A stretch of 64,000 nucleotides of DNA from an uncultured Candidatus Saccharibacteria bacterium (GCA_964599285.1 CAZREI010000002.1:9955-73954), one strand, 5' to 3'. Numbered from the stretch's first letter, positions 38,671-48,986 are shown. Notes: generated from the letters alone by a model not told the origin. A program made the numbers and translations.

Positions 38671-40404
38671 TTACCCTATCGGCAGCTCAATGTAAAAAGT
38701 GGATCCCTGGTTTTCGCCCTTGGACTCTGCCCAAATCTTGCCGTTATGAGCTTTGATAATTTGCGTTGCCAGATACAAACCGATGCCGCTGCCAGAAGCA
38801 ACATCCTTGGCCTTTTGATCCCGCTCAAACACGCGGTCAAACAAAGTTTTTAGGCTTTCGGGTGTCATGCCAATACCCGTATCGGCAATGGTAATTAAAA
38901 TGGCGTTTTTGGAATTTTCGTTTTTTGGATTTTCATTGGAAATTGGTAATTGGGAATTGGAATTTATTTTCACCGTCACGCTTCCCTTCGGCGTGTACTT
39001 TATAGAATTATCAATGACATTGAAAATGGCTGCTTTTAATTTTTCTCGGTCGGCGGTGATGCTTACGTCCTTGGCCATTTTTTCCAGCTTCAACACAACC
39101 CCTTTTGATTCGGCCTTAAACGAAAGTTCGTTTACAATTTCATCCAACATTGGTGAAATCGCAATGCCAGGCTTTAATGTTACCGGATTTTTGCCCAACT
39201 GAAACTGCGTCACATCCAAAAAATTGTTGACTTTACGAATCATGTTTTGCGCCACGGCTTGCATTTTTTTGATGACCTCCAGCGTTTTTTTGTTCTGCTT
39301 GCCAAAGGTACCATTAAGCAACAGGTCGGAGTAGCCCATGATGGAAGTCAGCGGCGTTCGCAAATCGTGCTGGGTATTTTGCACAAACTGGTTTTTGATT
39401 TTATCCAACTTTTCCAGTTCTTCATTGGCCTTTTTTTCAACCAGGTAGGCCCGGTCAATATTTTCCTTGGCCCGCTTTTCCGTAACATAAGCGCGCCGAA
39501 CATCCTCAGCCATAGCGGCAATCTTCTCCCGCTGCTGCACCTCCCTCAAAACCCCGCGAATCAATAAAATGCCAAAGATAAGTACTGACAAAAAAACCGA
39601 AGACCGGTAGAAGATGACAACCAAAGAATCCGCCTGAGTGATTTCTAAAAAAGTAACCACCGAAAGTGCGAAGACCAAAGCCGCAGTTCCAATAACTCTG
39701 ATATTGAATAATTTATGCCTAATGATTGCGTAGGAAGTAAATAAAATAAATGGAAAAACAAATAAAGAACCGAATGGTGCAAATCTGGGATTACCAAACA
39801 CTGTTGGTAATATTAAATTAAATAAAATGTGCAAAACAAAAGTAATAGTTACACCTGTAAGCAATAATCTTAACTCACTTTTTTCCGTCGTATTAGTTGC
39901 TTTGATTAATTTTCTACACAATAAATAAATTGCATAGACTATTAAAAAGATAACCGTAATACCAAAAATAATAACACCAAAACCATTGCTAACTTTTTCT
40001 ATTCCTCCACTTTCTGAAAACTGGGTAACGCGCTCAAAAACAAATGGCGTCAAAGTTAGTAAGGTACTTAAAACTACCGCAGGAAGAACAAGTAAATAAT
40101 AAACTTTTGGAAATGAGATTTTTTCTTGAGGGAAAATATAAAAAAGCCTATAAAGAAAAAAGCAATACAAAATTGCAAAAAAAACATGGGCTCTTAAAAC
40201 CCAAATGGCTATATTTGATGGTAATGGTTGAAATATAAGATAATTTAAAATACCCCAAGGGATAGTTGAAATAACGAATGTGAAAAACGCACGATTTACC
40301 GCGCTCTTACTATTACTCAAAATAACAGTAAAACCCAAAACTCCATTTGCTGCTAATGCAATGCCAACAAATAATAGATCAAAATTTTGAAAATAATCAG
40401 TCAT
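38671..40404 (-). CDS. membrane sensor histidine kinase carrying a repeat-derived in-frame insert
   Basis: HisKA H-box QHDLRTPLTSI; HATPase G-boxes. Low-complexity SNENPKNENSKN encoded by an intergenic-type repeat at 38920-38962. Confidence 0.85.
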   Translation of the reverse strand: MTDYFQNFDLLFVGIALAANGVLGFTVILSNSKSAVNRAFFTFVISTIPWGILNYLIFQPLPSNIAIWVLRAHVFFAILYCFFLYRLFYIFPQEKISFPKVYYLLVLPAVVLSTLLTLTPFVFERVTQFSESGGIEKVSNGFGVIIFGITVIFLIVYAIYLLCRKLIKATNTTEKSELRLLLTGVTITFVLHILFNLILPTVFGNPRFAPFGSLFVFPFILFTSYAIIRHKLFNIRVIGTAALVFALSVVTFLEITQADSLVVIFYRSSVFLSVLIFGILLIRGVLREVQQREKIAAMAEDVRRAYVTEKRAKENIDRAYLVEKKANEELEKLDKIKNQFVQNTQHDLRTPLTSIMGYSDLLLNGTFGKQNKKTLEVIKKMQAVAQNMIRKVNNFLDVTQFQLGKNPVTLKPGIAISPMLDEIVNELSFKAESKGVVLKLEKMAKDVSITADREKLKAAIFNVIDNSIKYTPKGSVTVKINSNSQLPISNENPKNENSKNAILITIADTGIGMTPESLKTLFDRVFERDQKAKDVASGSGIGLYLATQIIKAHNGKIWAESKGENQGSTFYIELPIG

Positions 40405-40407
40405 AGA

Positions 40408-41484
40408 CTAAAGCCACTGAATTTCTGGTTTCTTTTTCAAGGATTGGGCAGTCGGCGGAGCGGCGTACCCTATCCTAAAACTAAAAGTTGGAATTCTTCC
40501 TGAAGTACTAAAAATTTTCACAATATTTTGATAAGCTTTTTTTATAAACACTACCTGATTTGGTGTAAATTCTTCTGGAGTTTCCTCCTGCATCCTCTGT
40601 CCTATATATAAAAGGCCTGCTGACACTGGTTGGAAACTTAGTCCTAAAGAAGTCACGGTAAGCCAAAATAATTGAAGAATTCTTCCAGTTTCAATAAAGT
40701 CTTTAGGTAAATCACTTTTAGCAACAATTAAACCTATCGCAGAGCAGTTACAATAGAGCTCTTCTCTCTTTTTTGCAGCTTTTACTGATATCTTAAATTT
40801 ATTTAGTATCTTTAAAATATTCCAATTACTAAACAGGTATTTAAATATAATTCGCATTAAAAATGGGAGCTCCTTAGTCCCGACATACAAACCTTCTCGT
40901 TTCTTTTTCTCTTCTTCTACGGTCCAGCTTACTTTTGCAAAAAAAGCTTTATGAATATCAAAGTTTTCAAAAATTAATCTATCCGCCATACTAAACGAAC
41001 CTGAAAGATTGCTTATATCTTCAACATTCTGTTTTAATAAAATCTCTAATCCTGAATTTTTTATTGATTCACAAAATGCTTTTATTGACTTTTCGTCCTC
41101 CTGTTTGAGGGGGATCTTTTTGTAAGGTTTTCTATTTGTAGCACGCTTCAAAATAAAAGGAAAAAGATAATTATAAGGATATTTGATATCACTTTTTTCA
41201 AAACTTATTTCTGCAACTAAATCAACTTCATTTTCTTTTGGAAACAAAGTTAAGTTCCCTCTATACCCTTTTTCTGATGCAGTAATTAAAATATTCTCAA
41301 TTAAGGCTCCGTGAGCAATAAACGATCCTCTTTGTTGATAATTAAATAAGAATTTATCCTTATTAGGAAGATTCCATAGAAAAATTTTATTATCGCTGAC
41401 AACAAATCTCCATGGCTGGGAATTATTTCCAGATGGAGCGTTTACGGCAATATTCAAAATTTCATTAATTATTCCTTTCATCAA
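40408..41484 (-). CDS. tandem nitroreductase-family protein (SagB-like or Acg-like)
   Basis: N-terminal VNAPSGNNSQPWRFVV nitroreductase signature; second nitroreductase-like half. Confidence 0.65.
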   Translation of the reverse strand: MMKGIINEILNIAVNAPSGNNSQPWRFVVSDNKIFLWNLPNKDKFLFNYQQRGSFIAHGALIENILITASEKGYRGNLTLFPKENEVDLVAEISFEKSDIKYPYNYLFPFILKRATNRKPYKKIPLKQEDEKSIKAFCESIKNSGLEILLKQNVEDISNLSGSFSMADRLIFENFDIHKAFFAKVSWTVEEEKKKREGLYVGTKELPFLMRIIFKYLFSNWNILKILNKFKISVKAAKKREELYCNCSAIGLIVAKSDLPKDFIETGRILQLFWLTVTSLGLSFQPVSAGLLYIGQRMQEETPEEFTPNQVVFIKKAYQNIVKIFSTSGRIPTFSFRIGYAAPPTAQSLKKKPEIQWL

Positions 41485-42564
41485 CTATCGTGAAATAAAA
41501 TCATCGAATGTCACCCGACTCCTTCCGCTTTTCACAGGCTCTCCAAGAGCAATCTTTCTGGCAATAAAACACGCAATACCAGAAGCTATGGTTACCGTGC
41601 TCATCAGCTGAGGCCTTCCCACTAAAGTTTTGCCGATCTCTTTTACCGAATCCATCACTTTTGGTGGAATATTCTGGGGCCCTACAATCTGCACTACATA
41701 TTTATTGACTTCTGCTTTAGGAACTTTGCCTTGCAACAAATCATCTAAGATTTTTTCCTCAACCATTCCATTAAATATTTTGGTATCTAGGTCATTGTCA
41801 TAGCGCTCCACATCAATGAGTACAGAGTCTCCAATACTGGTAAGCATGACCACGGGAATTTTTTGTTTTTTAGCTTCTTTCCTAAGTAAAATTTTCAATT
41901 CCAGATCATCAATAATTTCAAATACTAAATTTGTTTTTTGCTTGCCACCTAAAAAATCACCCATAGTTTCTTTGGTAAGACCTTTTTCAAACGGTATTAC
42001 ATTTACATAGGGATCTAACTCATATAACTGCTTGCTGATAATATCTATTTTTGGAGATCCCACGTCAGAAAGCTTTCCCCTCACCCTATTTAAATTGGTT
42101 GTTTCCAGAGTATCAAAATCAGCAATTTTTATATGTTTTGGAAACCCATTATATAAAAGTGTTGTGGCAATATTTCCTCCCACGGAAAGACCGGCAATGG
42201 CAATGGTAAAATTCCGTAACTTTTGTTGCTCTTCCGCAGTAATAATATTTCTATTGCGATTTGTTCGCAATGCGTCATTTTCTTGTTCTGAAAGTGTATG
42301 TAAAAGGACATTGCTCCAGGGATAATAGATCCAATCGCCAAGTAAATCTTGATCTTCTTGAGTTTTTATTTTTTTGAATACTAAGAATTCTTTATTAAAT
42401 TCTTCTTTCCCTGCAATGTGCGCATTTCTTATCTCAAAAAACTCTTTTAGTTGTTGTAAATAAACATCAACTACTTTGGGTTTATATTTATCTTCAAGAT
42501 TAGTAATTTCTTTTTCAGTGTATGCGCCCTCTTTTAAAATAGTGGGGTTTTTTAAATTATCCAT
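41485..42564 (-). CDS. E1-like ThiF/MoeB-family adenylyltransferase
   Basis: IAIAGLSVGGNIAT...IKIADFDTLETTNLNR. Confidence 0.75.
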   Translation of the reverse strand: MDNLKNPTILKEGAYTEKEITNLEDKYKPKVVDVYLQQLKEFFEIRNAHIAGKEEFNKEFLVFKKIKTQEDQDLLGDWIYYPWSNVLLHTLSEQENDALRTNRNRNIITAEEQQKLRNFTIAIAGLSVGGNIATTLLYNGFPKHIKIADFDTLETTNLNRVRGKLSDVGSPKIDIISKQLYELDPYVNVIPFEKGLTKETMGDFLGGKQKTNLVFEIIDDLELKILLRKEAKKQKIPVVMLTSIGDSVLIDVERYDNDLDTKIFNGMVEEKILDDLLQGKVPKAEVNKYVVQIVGPQNIPPKVMDSVKEIGKTLVGRPQLMSTVTIASGIACFIARKIALGEPVKSGRSRVTFDDFISR

Positions 42565-42593
42565 TCTATTATGTCGAGTTATATTTTAAAACT

Positions 42594-43367
42594 TTATTTT
42601 TTACTAACTTTTCTAGCTAATATTTTTGCAGATATATTAAATATGGGACTTCCATCTAATTTTTTGCCAAATGCCTTTCTCTTAACTTCATTGTATTCTA
42701 AAATTTCCCAACCCATATACATCTCTTTCAATTCGCCCTCATCTGGATAAAAATTATCTGTTTTGGGATCCTCCCTAAAAAAATCACCATTTTTCGTAAA
42801 AACCGTTATCGCATTTAATCCTTTAAGATTAGTGTGCTCCTGAATTTCCCGTATTAGTTTTATTGCTTCCTCATAAGACAAATGATGCAGCATAAAAGTA
42901 GAGACTAACACATCAAAATTACTATCAAGATTTAAATGGCGGCTATCTACAATTTCTGTTTTTATACCTAAATCTTTTTCCTGAGATACTTTTTTTATTT
43001 TTTCTATTCCAACTTTGGAAATATCTTCTGCCGTAACTTCAAATCCATTTTCAGCCAAAAATATAGAATTTCTCCCTTCACCAGCTCCTAATTCTAAAAC
43101 GGAACCTGAATTGCGATATTTTAGTATATCTTCAACAATTTTTTCTGGTTTTCCTTGGCCAAAAGTAACCCCATTTTCAGAATACATTTTGTCATAATGT
43201 TCTGCTATCTTATCTGCTGCTCCATCTTCACTTTCATTATTTTTTAACTGCTCTGCCATAAATTTACTACTAGGAATATTTTGATTTCGTTGCTGTATTT
43301 TACCATAAATCGGTTCAATCAGGCAACTGAAAGCTGTACATTTGTATATTTTCTTTACCTTGTTCAT
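42594..43367 (-). CDS. class I SAM-dependent methyltransferase (TehB-like)
   Basis: VLELGAGEGRNSIFLAENGFEVTAEDIS. Confidence 0.7.
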   Translation of the reverse strand: MNKVKKIYKCTAFSCLIEPIYGKIQQRNQNIPSSKFMAEQLKNNESEDGAADKIAEHYDKMYSENGVTFGQGKPEKIVEDILKYRNSGSVLELGAGEGRNSIFLAENGFEVTAEDISKVGIEKIKKVSQEKDLGIKTEIVDSRHLNLDSNFDVLVSTFMLHHLSYEEAIKLIREIQEHTNLKGLNAITVFTKNGDFFREDPKTDNFYPDEGELKEMYMGWEILEYNEVKRKAFGKKLDGSPIFNISAKILARKVSKK

Positions 43368-43482: not shown

Positions 43483-43977
43483 ATGTCTCATGCTATATCT
43501 AAGCAAAAAGTCTACGAAATGCTGATTGAGGAGATTAACCAAGTTATTGATAGGCTCACGAAGGTATATGAGACCACAAGTGATGCTGCGGTCAAGGCGC
43601 AGGGACGTATGGAATCACGCTACGACACGACCAAGGAAGAGCAAAGTAAGCTCGCAGATGCTATTGGTATGCAAGTTTATGAGCATAGGAAGCGTCTTAA
43701 GTCGCTTCAGTATTTCTGGTCTATAACAACGAAAAACGTAGGGACAGTTATTGGTCCCGGGTCGTTAGTTATAGTTGAAGCTGATAATCAAGAAGAAGTA
43801 TACTTTATTATTGAATCAGGGAGCGGTTACGTTTTTGAACTAGAAGGTTGCGAAATTGTTTGTATCTCTGTTCAGACGCCGCTCGCTCAATCACTAACTG
43901 GGCACAAACAAGGTGAAGTAGTGGAAGTGATAGTTGGGGGGGAAAAACGCTTACTAACTATCAAGTCCCTGCAGTAA
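43483..43977 (+). CDS. GreA/GreB-family-like protein
   Basis: C-terminal FKBP-like domain ISVQTPLAQSLTGHKQGEVVEVIVGGEKRLLTIKSL resembles GreA C-terminus; GGAGG SD. Confidence 0.55.
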   Translation: MSHAISKQKVYEMLIEEINQVIDRLTKVYETTSDAAVKAQGRMESRYDTTKEEQSKLADAIGMQVYEHRKRLKSLQYFWSITTKNVGTVIGPGSLVIVEADNQEEVYFIIESGSGYVFELEGCEIVCISVQTPLAQSLTGHKQGEVVEVIVGGEKRLLTIKSLQ

Positions 43978-43997
43978 TCCAACTGAAAGGATTTGAG

Positions 43998-44564
43998 ATG
44001 AAACTGGAACATGTCTTTGTTAGTATTGATGGAGTAGATGGTGTTGGCAAGACCACGGTAGCAAAGCTTCTTGCTGCTGATGGATCTTTCCAATATCACA
44101 AGTCTCCAACCAGCCCTTTTGCGCAACTGCGAAAAGAAGTTGACGCTCACGCAAATCCGATTGAACGCTACTGCTTCTACCGTATAGCAACGCAGTTTGA
44201 TTCAGCGCAGATAAGCAAGTTGCTGGAAACAAACTCAGTTGTCTGTGATCGCTACATTGCGTCAACGGCGGCATATCACATCGCAATGGACGCTCGTATT
44301 CGAGTTATCCATAGTGATGCGGAACTCCTTAAGCCACATTTTGCGTTTCTTCTAGGTGCTCGTTCGGAGATTCGTGATAAGCGAATACTTGAACGCGCAA
44401 AAGTGTTAAGCGATGTAAAACTTGAGAGAGATAGTATGCTCCTCGATCGCGTCGCTGAAATTTTTATGTCGTTCGGTCTTACCTACATTGACACCAGCGA
44501 CATCCCAGCTGAAGAAGTCGTACAAGTAATAAAGCGCATCGTTGCGCAAGGAGGAATACCATGA
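43998..44564 (+). CDS. thymidylate-kinase-like P-loop nucleotide kinase
   Basis: SIDGVDGVGKTT P-loop; DRYIAS; AAGGA SD. Confidence 0.65.
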   Translation: MKLEHVFVSIDGVDGVGKTTVAKLLAADGSFQYHKSPTSPFAQLRKEVDAHANPIERYCFYRIATQFDSAQISKLLETNSVVCDRYIASTAAYHIAMDARIRVIHSDAELLKPHFAFLLGARSEIRDKRILERAKVLSDVKLERDSMLLDRVAEIFMSFGLTYIDTSDIPAEEVVQVIKRIVAQGGIP

Positions 44565-45574
44565 GCTTGAAGCCGCTTTCGTACGCTCACATCATGGCCA
44601 TTGCAGATGCGTGGCGTGATATGGGTGGTGTTCCTGAAGTAGAAATCGGTGCCCTTGAACCGCTTTTGTGGCGTGACGAGCAATATCGCATTCACGATGT
44701 TGTGAGTGCGCTGACTGAACGCGGATTCAATGTTTCGATGACCACCAATGGACAATTACTGGATATCTTCGCCAAGAATTTGAGTCGTGCAGGTCTCTCA
44801 CTCATACGAACTAGCTGGCACTCGACTGACCCACTTATGTTTCGGGAAATATCTGGAGGTTATGGTGATTACAATCGGTTCATGCGTGGGATAATACTTG
44901 CGCTTGAATCGGGTATAAAAATTGCCTTCAATCGCGTACTCCACAAAGGGTACACTGATGATATTCCCGAACAATTGTCGTTCATTGAGCGGTACAAAAG
45001 CCGACTCAAACTCTACACACTTCTATGGACGCCGCAGGGTGCATCTACTCACGAGTTGTTCTATCAAGATTGGCATCCTGTTGTGCGAGAATCAGTTTTG
45101 CCACGCACACTCAAGATAGTCAGAGTCAGAAAACAACTTGGTCGTGGACGTCTTCGGTTTCATCTTGTTGGAGGTGGATCGGTTGAAGTAAAGTTAGGTG
45201 ATAAATTGGACCGTAGTATGCACCCCTGTACATCATGCTCGTTTAAAAACGAGTGTGAAGAGGGGTTTGGCGACTATGTTCGAATTGACCCGCGTCTGCA
45301 CCTTTACTTCTGCTATATGCGCAGGGATATCGGATTCCAAATACCGGAATACTTTGGGAGACCAGAGGTATTGAAGCAGAAGTTACAAGAAGCAATTGGG
45401 ACAATAGATGTTGAGAATCTTCTTGTAACGGCTCCGCTACGCCTGACCGTAACGCCATTCTGCAATTTTAATTGCAGAGCGCCTGGCGCAAAACAGGGAT
45501 GGTGCATGGAGGAGCCAGGTGAGTACACATATCCAAAAATTCGTTTGTCTCTCCTGGGAGAAAACAAACCTTAA
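44561..45574 (+). CDS. MoaA-like radical-SAM-fold protein with cluster-loop-like motif at C-terminus
   Basis: EPLL...SMTTNGQLL...SWHSTDPLMF...IKIAFNRVLHKGYTDD...CTSC..C follows MoaA. No N-terminal CX3CX2C. C-terminal LRLTVTPFCNFNCRAPGAKQGWC resembles the MoaA N-terminal loop. Confidence 0.55.
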   Translation: MSLKPLSYAHIMAIADAWRDMGGVPEVEIGALEPLLWRDEQYRIHDVVSALTERGFNVSMTTNGQLLDIFAKNLSRAGLSLIRTSWHSTDPLMFREISGGYGDYNRFMRGIILALESGIKIAFNRVLHKGYTDDIPEQLSFIERYKSRLKLYTLLWTPQGASTHELFYQDWHPVVRESVLPRTLKIVRVRKQLGRGRLRFHLVGGGSVEVKLGDKLDRSMHPCTSCSFKNECEEGFGDYVRIDPRLHLYFCYMRRDIGFQIPEYFGRPEVLKQKLQEAIGTIDVENLLVTAPLRLTVTPFCNFNCRAPGAKQGWCMEEPGEYTYPKIRLSLLGENKP

Positions 45575-45595
45575 TGCCGCGATGAGCTTACAAGT

Positions 45596-46174
45596 TCATG
45601 CGGCTTTTTTCTTTGGTGGATTTGAGAATGTGATTTTCGACAAACGAATTATTGTTTCGGCAGGAATACCTATTTCTTTTTCGTATATAAGATCAATACT
45701 ACCAAAGACAGCTTTTCTGAATTCAAAACCTAATTCACTGGATATTTCTTGCACTATTTTCTCGTTTGACCCCTCAATCTCTACAAATGGATTTAGTCCA
45801 GGCCATGTATCAATCATTACTTCCACTCCGTCACGCACCCATACCTCGCGCATATTTTCCTGAAATGCTTTTACGGGGGCACCACATGCTTCTAAAAACG
45901 ATGCGGCAGTATCAAAATCATTGACAATAAGCTCAACTTCATAAGTGTCGTTGATGCCCAATCCACGAACTTCTTTAATAGTCATTGTTACCTTATCGGA
46001 TTCTTGCCGAACACGACCCCATTTATTTCGTCCAGGCGCAATACGAGAAAAATCAAAAGTTTTTCTCCGCATCATATAATCCGGGGTTTTTAAATCAAAT
46101 CCCTTACTTTTTAATTTGACTCGTAGTAAATCTTTATTGACCGATAGGAATTTTGCCTCTACTTCTTTTTTCAT
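45596..46174 (-). CDS. CYTH-domain protein
   Basis: N-terminal EVEAKF. Confidence 0.65.
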   Translation of the reverse strand: MKKEVEAKFLSVNKDLLRVKLKSKGFDLKTPDYMMRRKTFDFSRIAPGRNKWGRVRQESDKVTMTIKEVRGLGINDTYEVELIVNDFDTAASFLEACGAPVKAFQENMREVWVRDGVEVMIDTWPGLNPFVEIEGSNEKIVQEISSELGFEFRKAVFGSIDLIYEKEIGIPAETIIRLSKITFSNPPKKKAA

Positions 46175-46238
46175 AACTGTAGTTTATCACGAATTTTATC
46201 ATCTGCATAATTTAAAGAAATACAATTTTATAGGCTCT

Positions 46239-46817
46239 CTATAATACTTCCGCAGAAAATAATTTTAGTTTATCCGCTAACTTACTAATAGGAAGCCCTT
46301 CAGCACCAAAAAAGTCACCTTCTATTTTTTCAATCAATACCGCGCCAATGCCTTGAATGGCATATGAACCAGCTTTATCTAAAGGTTCCCCGGTTTCTAT
46401 ATATTTTTTGATTGTACTGGAAGTAAACTTTTTCATATAAACCACTGTTTTATCGTGAAAAGATAGTGATTTGCCGTTCTTGGTATCGATAATAGTAACT
46501 CCAGATATAATATCGTGTTTTGTCCCGCTTAACATTGTAAGCATTTTCTCGGCATCTTTTTTATTTTTTGGTTTACCCAATTTCTTATTCTTATATACTA
46601 CAATCGTGTCAGCAGCGATGATAATGGTATTAGGATTTTTAAGAGCAACACTTTCTGCTTTTCCTTGCGACAAATATTCAACCAGTTTTTCGGGTGACAT
46701 TTTCAGATTCATATCTTCCCGATAATCACTTGCCTGAATTTGAAAAACTAACCCTGTTCTTGCAAGGATTTCTTTTCTTCGCGGAGAAGTTGAGGCTAAT
46801 ACTATTTTTCTATTCAT
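46239..46817 (-). CDS. maf: Maf-like nucleoside triphosphate pyrophosphatase
   Basis: IVLASTSPRRKEIL. Confidence 0.85.
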   Translation of the reverse strand: MNRKIVLASTSPRRKEILARTGLVFQIQASDYREDMNLKMSPEKLVEYLSQGKAESVALKNPNTIIIAADTIVVYKNKKLGKPKNKKDAEKMLTMLSGTKHDIISGVTIIDTKNGKSLSFHDKTVVYMKKFTSSTIKKYIETGEPLDKAGSYAIQGIGAVLIEKIEGDFFGAEGLPISKLADKLKLFSAEVL

Positions 46818-46830
46818 GATAAAAAATCTA

Positions 46831-47370
46831 TTATGTTTTTTTATAAAAACTTTCAGGTGGCGCGATTATCTGAATGAAGGCATTTCTTAAAGATTCTTCC
46901 AAACTTATTTCCCGTATCAGCACCCCTCCAGAATATGTTCCCCATGTATCATTCGGCAAGTTGCCAAATTCCTTTTCAATCATTGCCATAACGCCATAAT
47001 GTTCCATGTTTAGATCATCCATTTTTTGCAAGATATAATCTGGAACTTTTAATCCACTAGAATATCCGTAGTATTCTTTGCTGTCACCAGTTATAATAAC
47101 AGCCCAACACTCTTCATACATATGTCCGTATCTTTCTACTAAACCGCTTTCCAATCCTATATAATAATCGCAATTTATAACATGATGTTTAGAGTCCATC
47201 GCCCTATTCCTTGCTCCATCAAAAGTTTGCTGATCGTAAGGAGTATAAGGAACTTTGGATTCTGCATCATAACTTTCAGTAACTATATTTTTCTCATTAA
47301 AAAGTTGGCCAACAACCTTTTCAGTGACAGCAATTTTTCTCTGACTTTTGGAACCAACAACAAATTTCAT
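46831..47370 (-). CDS. YjjX-like non-canonical purine NTP phosphatase
   Basis: MKFVVGSKSQRKIAVTEK...YIGLESGLV. Confidence 0.6.
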   Translation of the reverse strand: MKFVVGSKSQRKIAVTEKVVGQLFNEKNIVTESYDAESKVPYTPYDQQTFDGARNRAMDSKHHVINCDYYIGLESGLVERYGHMYEECWAVIITGDSKEYYGYSSGLKVPDYILQKMDDLNMEHYGVMAMIEKEFGNLPNDTWGTYSGGVLIREISLEESLRNAFIQIIAPPESFYKKT

Positions 47371-47438
47371 AATTTCTATTTTTAATTTTTGTATCCCCCA
47401 TTTATCTATATGTGAAAAGCAAAAAATAGGAAAATAGA

Positions 47439-48986
47439 TTACTTCTTCACCCACTTCTGTTTGATGCCCAGTTTAAAATGCTTTGGATCTTCGGCTGGCC
47501 AAAATTGTAATCTAGGCAATGCACGGTTACCGATAAATTTATGCAACTCCCGATATTCGGAGTTTTTTAATTCTAACTGTTCAGTGATAGCGTTAACCAT
47601 GGCACGTTTAATGACCTTGGGGATACCATTCTCTCCATAAGGTTTTTTCATCTCCAAATGAATTAAAAGATACTGGTTTTGCTTGCGGTCAAATTGGGTC
47701 TCCAAAGTGAATTTTCCTGTCACATACATGGCCAGCGGTTTTTTGAGCAAGGCCGCCCTGATCGGTTCTGGATAAATTTGCAAGCCATATAACGTAACTG
47801 ACAAGTCGCTGCGTTCAAAAACAAACACAAACGGAAGTTCGTTGGCAACTGTATCTATGCCGGCTTTTTTTTCTTCACGGACAATATCTACGCCATGCTT
47901 TTTGAGCAGGGCAACCATTTGCGAATAAGAATACACTCCCCCATGATCTCCAACATTATAGCGGATTAAGGGAATTTCGTTATTACCCGTTAAAATAATA
48001 TTCCCGTCTACTGACTCAAAATTAATAAATAACGGATTAAATTGAGTTAAGGTGGGTGTCTTATTGATTGATCCGAAGATATCTTTAAATAAGTCTGGCT
48101 TACTGGTGGCTATTCTCCGAATTAAAATACTCAGCGGAGTTTCATAAGCCATAGCACCAATATCCGCAGTTCCGTAAATATTCAACGTATCCAAGTAAAT
48201 ATTTTTAATACGGACACTATCGGCTAAGTAACTTCTGAACTCTTCGGTAAAAGCTTCTGCCGCAAAGAGTAACTTCACATTCATCTTTTTAAAGTCTACG
48301 CTTTGGGAAGCTGACTCATCAACAATATCTTTGATAAACGGCGGGTATCCGACTAAAACGACGGTATGAAAATGAGGCGCCAACTTTTTTAAGGTGTTGA
48401 AAATTTCTTTTTTATTAATGCCCGGGGTAATAATGGATATTGGAGTACCAATACGCTGGGCAGCCATTTCAAATGCTTTATAGGTAATCAAGCCCCCTAT
48501 CCACACTCCCATCCCAAAACAAATAACCACCAAGGTAGGGCCTTGTTTTTTTTGCAAACTATTCTTAAGAAATTCTTCAATCAACAAAGAATACTGCCAA
48601 TCCAGTTCGTTTCCCCTAGGAAAATAAAATGGCTCTCCCGTAGAACCAGATGTTGAAGTAAATACTAATGGTTTTTCCAGATTTCCGTTCCAGCAAACTT
48701 TTTCAAGTGAATATTTACGCAGATAGTCTTTTTTGCTAATAGGCGGAACTTGCACAAAATCGTCCCATGTTTTTATTTCTCCAGGATTAACTCTATTTTT
48801 TTTAAGAAAATCCTGATAAGCGGGAACAAATTCAGCTGCTTTACGGAAAAGTGCCAATGAACGTTTTTTTTGTTCCAATGACCAATCATTTGAATTTCTT
48901 TTTTTTACATCCAAAAGATCCGGGCTATTCTGTTTGATAACTTTAAAAAGAGTAGATGTGGTAAAACTTTTTTGAGATTTCATCAA
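47439..48986 (-). CDS. adenylate-forming enzyme, PaaK-like (F390 synthetase-like)
   Basis: TSTSGSTGEPF. Confidence 0.7.
   Translation of the reverse strand: MMKSQKSFTTSTLFKVIKQNSPDLLDVKKRNSNDWSLEQKKRSLALFRKAAEFVPAYQDFLKKNRVNPGEIKTWDDFVQVPPISKKDYLRKYSLEKVCWNGNLEKPLVFTSTSGSTGEPFYFPRGNELDWQYSLLIEEFLKNSLQKKQGPTLVVICFGMGVWIGGLITYKAFEMAAQRIGTPISIITPGINKKEIFNTLKKLAPHFHTVVLVGYPPFIKDIVDESASQSVDFKKMNVKLLFAAEAFTEEFRSYLADSVRIKNIYLDTLNIYGTADIGAMAYETPLSILIRRIATSKPDLFKDIFGSINKTPTLTQFNPLFINFESVDGNIILTGNNEIPLIRYNVGDHGGVYSYSQMVALLKKHGVDIVREEKKAGIDTVANELPFVFVFERSDLSVTLYGLQIYPEPIRAALLKKPLAMYVTGKFTLETQFDRKQNQYLLIHLEMKKPYGENGIPKVIKRAMVNAITEQLELKNSEYRELHKFIGNRALPRLQFWPAEDPKHFKLGIKQKWVKK

Follow-up and report, generated by a model that had tools for sequence, protein, structure and literature searches.

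The third gene of a small conserved module in an uncultured Candidatus Saccharibacteria bacterium appears to encode a radical SAM (S-adenosylmethionine) enzyme whose core has been circularly permuted. The module lies in a stretch of 64,000 nucleotides (GCA_964599285.1, CAZREI010000002.1:9955-73954), hereafter the window, in which all positions are counted from the first letter. Its four genes encode a Gre-like factor (g1), a nucleoside-monophosphate (NMP) kinase (g2), the radical SAM protein (g3) and a CYTH-like protein (g4). Comparison with its relatives shows that g3, at the level of its sequence, is a natural circular permutant, presumably functional, within the MoaA-like, twitch-type branch of radical SAM enzymes. 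For the whole explanation, which joins the permuted g3 and its mechanism to the conserved module and a putative function for it, we estimate a probability of roughly 0.7.

The main hallmark by which radical SAM enzymes are identified and sorted is a CX3CX2C loop at the N-terminus. An earlier note on this DNA had reported that g3 lacks this loop, and indeed no Cys occurs upstream of residue 223 of the 337-residue protein. Its match to the Pfam Radical_SAM family (PF04055; 58.3 bits against a gathering threshold of 29.5, E = 1.4e-15) is limited to profile positions 28-160 of 166; therefore the part of the profile that normally holds CX3CX2C is absent. What is present is a partial (β/α)6 barrel with a GGE-type motif and the TTNG ribose motif. 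The seven Cys residues are C223/C226/C232/C251 and C301/C305/C315, and the last three sit in the tail, LRLTVTPFCNFNCRAPGAKQGWC, with CX3CX9C spacing, as a homologous cluster loop that is both displaced and expanded. In an alignment of 22 sequences (50-93% identity), the GALEP residues G30, A31, L32, E33 and P34, which a profile alignment places on the GGEPL of MoaA, are invariant. The tail residues C301, N302, F303, P308, G309, W314 and C315 are likewise invariant and C305 nearly so. The auxiliary residues C223, C232 and C251 are invariant and C226 is nearly so, and canonical-order relatives show the same auxiliary pattern.

We searched 5.8 billion proteins and found at least 155 g3-like protein clusters, nearly all of them full-length at ~335 amino acids (aa) and with 50-93% identity, mostly from Patescibacteria and from independent assemblies. 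Among 112 close homologues of full length, 111 retain the C-terminal CX3CX9C, a conservation that greatly exceeds chance; the residue preceding the last Cys is aromatic in 109 and Leu in two, and the remaining homologue stops inside the loop. An N-terminal cluster loop was found in none of the 112. Misassembly, which the earlier note had kept in view, is excluded, since no fewer than 155 independent clusters share the arrangement. An assembly or frameshift artefact that moved the N-terminal segment has nothing in its favour except the unusual order; the same order and the ~335-aa length are seen in these clusters, in 25 species genomes and in more distant representatives, and the start of g3 overlaps the stop of the kinase gene. 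We therefore dropped this explanation, whose likelihood is next to nil.

The permutation is apparent in the order of the alignments. The g3 family profile matched MoaA (1TV7) in swapped order (HMMER): positions 4-159 aligned to MoaA residues 48-201, while positions 292-306 aligned to MoaA residues 15-29, DLRLSVTDRCNFRCD, including the LRL.VT strand. BLASTP comparison of native g3 with 12 canonical-order relatives gave two matches in swapped order in every case (12/12), with g3 residues 293-318 matching the N-terminus of the subject and residues 7-253 matching subject positions ~50-294. The separate tail match was present in all 12 comparisons, five of them with E values of 2e-4 to 6e-4. When residues 287-337 were moved to the front, each of the 12 pairs yielded a single collinear match with a higher score (for example, 111 to 124 bits for P0162 and 105 to 118 bits for P0159). 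The same manipulation of the single g3 sequence brought no real gain against MoaA of the Protein Data Bank (32.1 vs 31.9 bits), because a long linker blocks the joining of the two segments; the approach needs canonical relatives that are closer.

Natural variants of the arrangement were found among the relatives. An exhaustive HMMER search of 1.84 billion representative proteins returned 4,560 relatives at E values up to 1e-3, and all four combinations of loop position (N- or C-terminal) and loop type (CX3CX2C or long) occur among the best 150 of these 4,560 representatives. The C-terminal expanded loop of the g3 type is found in, for example, P0121-P0154 and P0196, and the C-terminal canonical CX3CX2C in P0163 (IRAVINNYCNFQCSWCHENG), P0164, P0169, P0171 and P0184. 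An N-terminal expanded loop, ranging from CX3CX7 to CX3CX14, is found in P0158 (ELRLYVTEKCNFKCSFPCGTLWCH), P0159, P0162, P0165, P0166, P0170, P0172 and others, and in P0158, P0159, P0162 and others this form follows the pattern CNFxCxFPxxxxWC. The fourth combination is the ordinary MoaA-like N-terminal CX3CX2C. The permutation cut parts the cluster loop from α1 within their linker, and the old termini are bridged by helices 268-279 and 284-290. In a neighbour-joining tree all permuted proteins fell together, with weak bootstrap (18/60), and the permutation may have arisen once or more than once; a grouping of every long-loop protein had almost no bootstrap support (1/60). The swapped BLAST matches, their collinearity after un-permutation, these natural variants and a predicted structure nearest to MoaA bear out the relocation of the cluster loop by circular permutation that the earlier note had put forward.

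The structure predicted by AlphaFold2 from the g3 family alignment was confident overall (predicted local distance difference test, pLDDT, 89.5; predicted template-modelling score, pTM, 0.89). The order of its elements is α1, β2 (residues 26-29), four more α/β units to β6 (148-153), a beta-rich auxiliary domain, two linker helices and a strand at 293-295, which is the order of a radical SAM (β/α)6 barrel with β1 appended at the end. The pLDDT was 94 for residues 291-300 and 87 for residues 301-310. The nearest structure to the model is MoaA; other neighbours are BlsE, AbmM, viperin and DesII, and the peptide-modifying twitch/SPASM radical SAM enzymes SuiB, PqqE and SkfB are also close. Covariation, calculated as mutual information with average product correction over 145 permuted sequences (effective number 89), gave weak hints only: the best partners of R294 and V297 were E28 and I29 in β2. 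Homology and model confidence give good support to a putative placement of the tail on the barrel. Neither of the outcomes that the earlier note had named as refuting was obtained: the homologues lack a normal N-terminal motif, and the tail is modelled with confidence, in a compact fold, and not as a loose appendage; its placement is read from confidence values, homology and the weak covariation.

The tail might instead act in trans, its strand and loop completing the barrel of a partner subunit in a domain-swapped dimer. The loop stands at the chain end after a two-helix linker of ~35 residues, a geometry that would allow a swap, and ThiC reportedly draws its cluster domain from a neighbouring monomer. 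The R294-E28 and V297-I29 pairs fit a monomer and a swapped dimer alike. The compact monomer of the AlphaFold2 model, with its pTM of 0.89 and the high-confidence strand 293-295, argues against the exchange, and we regard it as quite unlikely.

We also considered that g3 might be a pseudo-radical-SAM protein that has lost its cluster loop, the Cys residues of its tail forming an unrelated metal knuckle or an extra auxiliary Fe-S site. The CX3CX9C spacing is non-canonical, curated "pseudo-SAM" families that lack the motif exist (one of them, TIGR04347, is among the weak matches of g3), and the geometry of the Cys residues is a prediction. Against this, the tail is not merely Cys-rich; it is homologous to β1 and the cluster loop of canonical relatives (12/12) and aligns to MoaA residues 15-29 with the LRL.VT strand. 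Moreover, sister proteins have an exact CX3CX2C at the same C-terminal place, the same expanded loop is N-terminal in relatives of canonical order, and g3 preserves both the SAM-site motifs and an aromatic residue ahead of the third Cys. Loss of the cluster loop is therefore very unlikely.

Altered Cys spacing has precedents. Non-canonical cluster motifs include CX2CX4C at the C-terminus of ThiC, CX14CX2C in QueE and CX5CX2C in HmdB, so the superfamily tolerates such changes, and in ThiC the cluster site also lies C-terminal to the barrel. Unlike in these enzymes, the segment that has moved in g3 is the same β1 and loop element that is N-terminal in its sister proteins.

On this basis, β1 and the [4Fe-4S]/SAM cluster loop, which usually open the protein, form the C-terminus of g3 (residues 293-315), and the chain begins with α1 and runs through β2-β6, the auxiliary-cluster domain and the two linker helices to β1. 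The loop is expanded to CX3CX9C, with the usual aromatic residue retained before the last Cys. C301, C305 and C315 would bind the cluster beside the SAM site formed by GALEP and TTNG, where SAM would be cleaved to give a 5'-deoxyadenosyl radical. C223, C226, C232 and C251 would hold a second cluster, probably fully ligated by Cys; they belong to the modelled region that overlays the C-terminal domain of MoaA (252 residues aligned).

MoaA is the best match to g3 in both sequence and structure, and the earlier note had rightly called the protein MoaA-like. Shared with MoaA (1TV7, 1TV8 and 2FB3) are the (β/α)6 core, the TTNG and GGEP-type motifs and a C-terminal auxiliary-cluster domain. The β1 sequence LRLSVTDRCNF of MoaA is also nearly identical to LRLTVTPFCNF of g3, including the Arg, R17 in MoaA and R294 in g3. 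Unlike MoaA, g3 has β1 and the loop at the C-terminus, CX3CX9C rather than CX3CX2C, and a gene context unrelated to molybdenum cofactor (Moco) synthesis. The auxiliary site has four conserved Cys residues (CX2CX5C...C) where MoaA has three, and g3 does not show the combination, characteristic of MoaA, of a three-Cys auxiliary cluster with an open iron and basic triphosphate residues. The four Cys residues suggest a fully ligated, twitch/SPASM-like cluster rather than the substrate-binding open iron of MoaA. In the profile alignment, the basic β2 residue R71 of MoaA, which contacts the nucleoside triphosphate (NTP) in the structure, is replaced by an invariant Glu (E28) in the g3 family.

These differences bear on whether g3 is simply an ordinary MoaA, a GTP 3',8-cyclase for Moco synthesis. 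Several sources name its homologues "cyclic pyranopterin phosphate synthase" or "MoaA", and MoaA is its best sequence and structure match. The scores of g3 fall far under the family cut-offs (80.7 against 325.25 for archaeal MoaA, 63.5 against 231 and 59.2 against 284.05; TIGR02666/TIGR02668/NF001199), its topology is permuted, and it has four auxiliary Cys residues and E28 for the basic residue. In the neighbourhoods of more than 20 loci no Moco genes are adjacent, and the constant partners are the Gre-like factor, the kinase and the CYTH protein. An ordinary MoaA is accordingly highly improbable.

Viperin offers a second comparison. The earlier note had likened the module to viperin-like defence, an idea that gains plausibility from the matches of the kinase given below; for g3 itself it did not hold, as the protein reached 16.9 bits against the viperin model NF038283 (cut-off 180). 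Matches to the PADLOC prokaryotic viperin (pVip) models had E values of ~5e-5 (5.5e-5 over 98 residues). As in the pairing of pVip with the kinase VakA, a radical SAM gene is translationally coupled to a kinase of the dTMP-kinase fold, and a nucleotide-modifying logic is plausible. Unlike pVip, g3 is not a viperin by score, is permuted, contains an auxiliary-cluster domain and has Gre-like and CYTH partners. Viperins are not known to contain an auxiliary-cluster domain.

DesII, BlsE and AbmM are structural neighbours of g3, and the permuted relative P0163, with its canonical C-terminal CX3CX2C, occupies a DesI/DesII-like setting that lacks the Gre-like factor, the kinase and the CYTH protein. 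At its locus (L007, 3709-7566) P0163 is flanked by genes for a DegT-family aminotransferase and an NTP-transferase, and upstream come inositol-phosphatase and AIRS-family genes. This nucleotide-sugar arrangement places the permuted topology in a second functional context.

The four genes of the module are laid out in Table 1. The earlier note had described an operon of three plus-strand genes. These open reading frames (ORFs) were confirmed and are conserved, Shine-Dalgarno-like motifs (GGAGG/AAGGA/AGGAGG) lie upstream of the g1, g2 and g3 starts, and ATGA at 44561-44564 overlaps the stop of g2 with the start of g3, as in translational coupling. The description was incomplete in that it overlooked g4, a fourth conserved gene. 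A local rise in GC content was also correctly noted (43-48% vs 29-35% in the immediate flanks), but the 43.9% of the module is close to the window mean of 42.1%. Since its GC content equals the window average, the module is not compositionally foreign; a GC island or recent transfer was considered and dropped, the GC content following that of the host.

Table 1. Positions of the module genes and their principal features in the window.
Feature	Position	Strand	Description
g1	43483-43977	+	Gre-like factor, 164 aa; N-terminal antiparallel coiled coil and GreA/B C-terminal domain
g1 coiled-coil tip motif	43603-43641	+	Residues 41-53, GRMESRYDTTKEE
g2	43998-44564	+	P-loop nucleoside-monophosphate kinase, dTMP-kinase fold, 188 aa
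g2 P-loop	44031-44054	+	GVDGVGKT
g3	44561-45574	+	Circularly permuted MoaA-like (twitch-type) radical SAM enzyme, 337 aa
g3 GALEP	44648-44662	+	Residues 30-34; variant of the GGEP SAM-binding motif, end of β2
g3 auxiliary-cluster region	45227-45313	+	CX2CX5CX18C (C223, C226, C232, C251)
g3 relocated β1 and cluster loop	45437-45505	+	Residues 293-315, LRLTVTPFCNFNCRAPGAKQGWC, CX3CX9C
g4	45596-46174	-	CYTH / triphosphate-tunnel-metalloenzyme-like protein, 192 aa; convergent with g3
g4 ExExK motif	46151-46165	-	EVEAK
DNA-alignable block	43982-46214		g2, g3 and g4, without g1; 67-84% identity to the nine closest module-bearing loci

The surroundings of the module in the window are as follows. Directly upstream of g4, on the same strand, are genes for Maf (46239-46817, minus strand) and an NTPase_I-T protein of the ITP/XTPase family (46831-47454, minus strand), two house-cleaning nucleotide pyrophosphatases that adjoin a nucleotide module. 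Their adjacency may be coincidence, because they are not kept beside the module in other loci. Beyond them, a 515-aa ORF with no Pfam match (47439-48986, minus strand) overlaps the start of the NTPase_I-T gene, and DNA similar to this ORF is found a few kilobases (kb) from the module in L016 (10273-10632). On the other side, a low-GC stretch at positions 40408-43367 (minus strand; GC 29-33%) carries genes for a 358-aa protein that resembles nitroreductases, a ThiF/E1-like protein of 359 aa and a methyltransferase of TehB type, and a histidine kinase lies at 38671-40404.

By its matches, g2 is a kinase of the dTMP-kinase fold. It scored above threshold for the Pfam Thymidylate_kin family (PF02223; E = 1.6e-12, 47.9 bits vs 27), below the cut-off for the dTMP kinase model TIGR00041 (49.7 bits; cut-off 83.25), and contains the P-loop GVDGVGKT and CDRY. 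Among PADLOC models it matched PDC-M51B, of a candidate defence system (E = 1.2e-24), and VakA over the full profile (E = 7.3e-18). We take VakA to be the PADLOC model of the viperin-associated kinase, and by this match g2 is an operonic nucleotide kinase of the viperin-associated type. Of PDC-M51, only the B component was matched, by the kinase; no other protein of the module matched any PDC-M51 model.

The g4 protein resembles CYTH and triphosphate tunnel enzymes such as CyaB and thiamine triphosphatase, which act on triphosphates, in its N-terminal ExExK motif and conserved charged tunnel residues. Its matches to cyaB (TIGR00318; E = 2.9e-5) and Pfam CYTH (E = 1.3e-4) are weak. Unlike known CYTH enzymes, it falls just below the Pfam gathering score (22.3 bits vs 23.2) and is dedicated to the module. 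E4, E6, K8 and many other charged residues are invariant in three orthologues, and g4 is kept beside the radical SAM gene in loci of the Candidate Phyla Radiation (CPR, Patescibacteria) with 51-82% identity. In L019 and L025, its place is taken by a co-directional paralogue that is only 37-38% identical.

The label GreA-like, applied to g1 in the earlier note, fits the fold; g1 is not an ordinary GreA but a hypervariable cassette with an invariant tip. The protein matched the Pfam GreA_GreB C-terminal domain (PF01272; E = 6.8e-9, 36 bits vs 26.9) and aligned over residues 8-162 with greA (TIGR01462), at 35 bits against a cut-off of 139. Its AlphaFold2 model (pLDDT 89) contains helices 7-38 and 47-81, an antiparallel coiled coil of 32+35 residues, and a beta-rich domain. 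Foldseek matched it at full length to GreA, Gfh1 and GreB (template-modelling score 0.5-0.58, ~160 columns), and the g1 profile matched Gfh1 with E = 1.6e-8 and GreA with E = 1.9e-6. Thus g1 shares with the Gre factors GreA, GreB, Gfh1 and Rnk the full-length fold, a coiled coil of GreA length and the C-terminal globular domain. Unlike GreA, it scores below the greA cut-off, it is as a rule encoded with a radical SAM module, it evolves or swaps much faster than its partners, and its tip reads G..SRYDT.KEE in place of the acidic DxxE, which in E. coli GreA comprises D41/E44. No alignment was obtained between the tip motif, G-x-M-x-S-R-Y-D-T-x-K-E-E, and the acidic tips of GreA and Gfh1. Residues G41, S45, R46, Y47, D48, T49, K51 and E53 of the motif do not vary across 44 family members, whose sequences elsewhere are ~20-30% identical. 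Judging from the fold only, g1 may bind in the secondary channel of RNA polymerase.

Among loci in which the radical SAM protein, kinase and CYTH protein are 78-91% identical, g1 is only 25-56% identical, and its relationships are incongruent with those of the enzymes; against loci with a radical SAM protein of 80-90% identity, g1 reaches just 25-35%. Alignment of the window with L012-L020 by blastn gave similarity of 67-84% that starts at 43982-44028 and ends at 46033-46214; in the closest three loci (~84% DNA identity) its left edge, at 43982-43997, falls precisely in the gap from g1 to g2, and its right edge is at 46214. This comparison detected no DNA similarity over g1 or the flanks. Because similarity begins only after g1, this gene is a swapped or very rapidly diverging cassette. 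At L023 (6719-7159, minus strand), a second, different GreA-like ORF lies just beyond the CYTH gene of the module. An apparent fusion of the radical SAM and Gre-like proteins in Verrucomicrobia (L031/L032) was rejected, the long stop-free frame being an off-frame artefact of high GC content.

We compared gene neighbourhoods to assess the conservation of the module, which was found in 25 loci among 185,579 species genomes and in further metagenome contigs. Nearly all Patescibacteria copies have all four genes. In the copies from Acidobacteria and Verrucomicrobia the kinase gene comes first, followed by the radical SAM gene and then the Gre-like gene, with no CYTH gene, and the Myxococcota copy (L034) has the radical SAM and Gre-like genes, with neither kinase nor CYTH detected. 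The permuted relative P0148 (~30% identical) retains a Gre-like factor and a kinase, and another copy is located after dynamin-like GTPases. In L039 (2489-4498), on a mobile-element-like segment with Prim-Pol/DUF5906 genes, a canonical-order radical SAM gene is accompanied by CYTH and by a Gre-like gene whose product carries the same tip (GAMESRYDTFKEEAQ). The flanks differ at every locus, and the module has a different place in each genome. A viral origin was considered and dropped, no relative being found among 2.9 million viral contigs. This comparison shows that the Gre-like factor, NMP kinase, radical SAM enzyme and CYTH protein form a conserved, self-contained module. On L040 (3466-4498), a sister contig of L039, the CYTH and Gre-like genes are kept and no radical SAM gene was called.

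Several features bear on what the module does. The kinase models, the nearest structures, the triphosphate chemistry of CYTH enzymes and the DesI/DesII-like context of P0163 point to nucleotide or nucleotide-sugar chemistry. Defence genes near sister proteins, the rare and scattered occurrence of the module and the hypervariable g1 lean towards a role in conflict. Canonical-order sister proteins adjoin NACHT, restriction-modification, toxin-antitoxin, HD and PLD genes. We infer with moderate confidence that the module is a nucleotide-modifying pathway coupled to RNA polymerase, most likely with a role in conflict or defence. In this scheme, the kinase and the CYTH protein would set the phosphorylation state of a nucleotide modified by the radical SAM enzyme. 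The Gre-like factor would couple this chemistry to RNA polymerase through the secondary channel, a role suggested by its coiled coil of GreA length and its invariant, non-GreA tip.

Two canonical-order relatives with the same expanded loop were seen in settings that resemble defence islands (L008, 1-7562; L010, 441-9434). One is preceded by a NACHT protein and a protein of 960 aa next to an IS605-type TnpB, and the second is surrounded by an MmeI-like restriction-modification gene, genes of toxin-antitoxin type and genes for HD and PLD proteins. The Ophion system, which combines radical SAM, PHP and PRTase proteins, was considered and differs from the module.

A number of observations weigh against the explanation as a whole. 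The scores of g3 lie far below the MoaA and viperin family cut-offs, and with E28 in place of MoaA R71 its substrate need not be an NTP held in the manner of MoaA. Cluster binding and SAM cleavage by g3 are predictions, and the fold-back of its tail is drawn from confidence values, homology and weak covariation rather than from model geometry. In CPR genomes the module is flanked for the most part by housekeeping genes, which form no classical defence island, and the module GC tracks the host GC across loci, giving no compositional sign of recent transfer. No PADLOC system was matched as a whole, the matches being those of the kinase and the weak ones to pVip. Finally, one Gre-like member stands alone: at L041 (4001-4456), a protein with the SRYDT tip is encoded between ArsR-like helix-turn-helix and Trp-repressor-like genes, with no radical SAM gene within 4 kb.

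Some of these observations would suit a regulatory rather than a defensive module, in which a nucleotide signal would act with the Gre-like factor on the host RNA polymerase, by analogy with ppGpp and DksA. The housekeeping flanks in CPR loci and the GC content that tracks the host fit such a role, as do the loose proximity of the module to ATP-synthase genes in two lineages and the class IV adenylate cyclases among the relatives of CYTH proteins. Its rare and patchy distribution, the swapped or hypervariable g1 and the mobile-element and defence-like contexts of related modules speak against regulation, which we judge unlikely.

The Gre-like factor might also be the substrate, S45/R46/Y47/D48/T49 of its invariant tip being modified post-translationally by the radical SAM enzyme with the kinase. 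Modified tip residues that reach a catalytic centre are found in EF-P and EF-2. The pairing of radical SAM and Gre-like proteins is the most constant one: it holds in L034, with no kinase or CYTH gene detected, and also with a canonical-order radical SAM protein where the kinase is missing and CYTH is present. The tip is invariant in a protein otherwise 20-30% identical, and the peptide-modifying SuiB, PqqE and SkfB are close structural neighbours of g3. Yet the kinase is a nucleotide kinase most like the PDC-M51B and VakA models, the substrates of CYTH enzymes are triphosphates, a peptide-recognition (RRE) domain was not seen, and the L041 protein carries the same tip with no adjacent radical SAM gene. 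Tip modification on its own is thus unlikely.

A broader and still tentative proposal is that the module is a new RNA-polymerase-directed system, in which the radical SAM enzyme would either modify the SRYDT tip post-translationally or make a nucleotide analogue that the dedicated Gre-like factor delivers or senses at the active site of the polymerase via the secondary channel. If true, the path to immunity or control would differ from that of viperin chain terminators as well as from ppGpp-DksA.

Full-text literature searches, whose coverage left out many subscription papers, turned up nothing on a radical SAM core that is circularly permuted, on a Gre factor linked to radical SAM, on PDC-M51 or on the whole module. 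NCBIfam and PADLOC hold no model specific to g3 or the module. We rate g3 as a new topological variant of a known superfamily and the module as an undescribed association, of which an earlier description is possible.

A natural family with a C-terminal cluster loop means that the radical SAM core tolerates circular permutation. No fewer than 155 close clusters belong to this family, together with ~35 representative clusters that are more distant; most come from Patescibacteria and others from Acidobacteria, Verrucomicrobia and Myxococcota. Its permuted members are now mis-annotated as MoaA and are easily mistaken for cluster-less pseudo-enzymes. Sister proteins cover each of the four pairings of order with loop length, and they should be useful for studies of loop positioning and for protein engineering. 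The pairing of the radical SAM enzyme with a Gre-like factor would link radical SAM chemistry to the secondary channel of RNA polymerase and, if this link is confirmed, would represent a new mode of transcription-targeted immunity or regulation.

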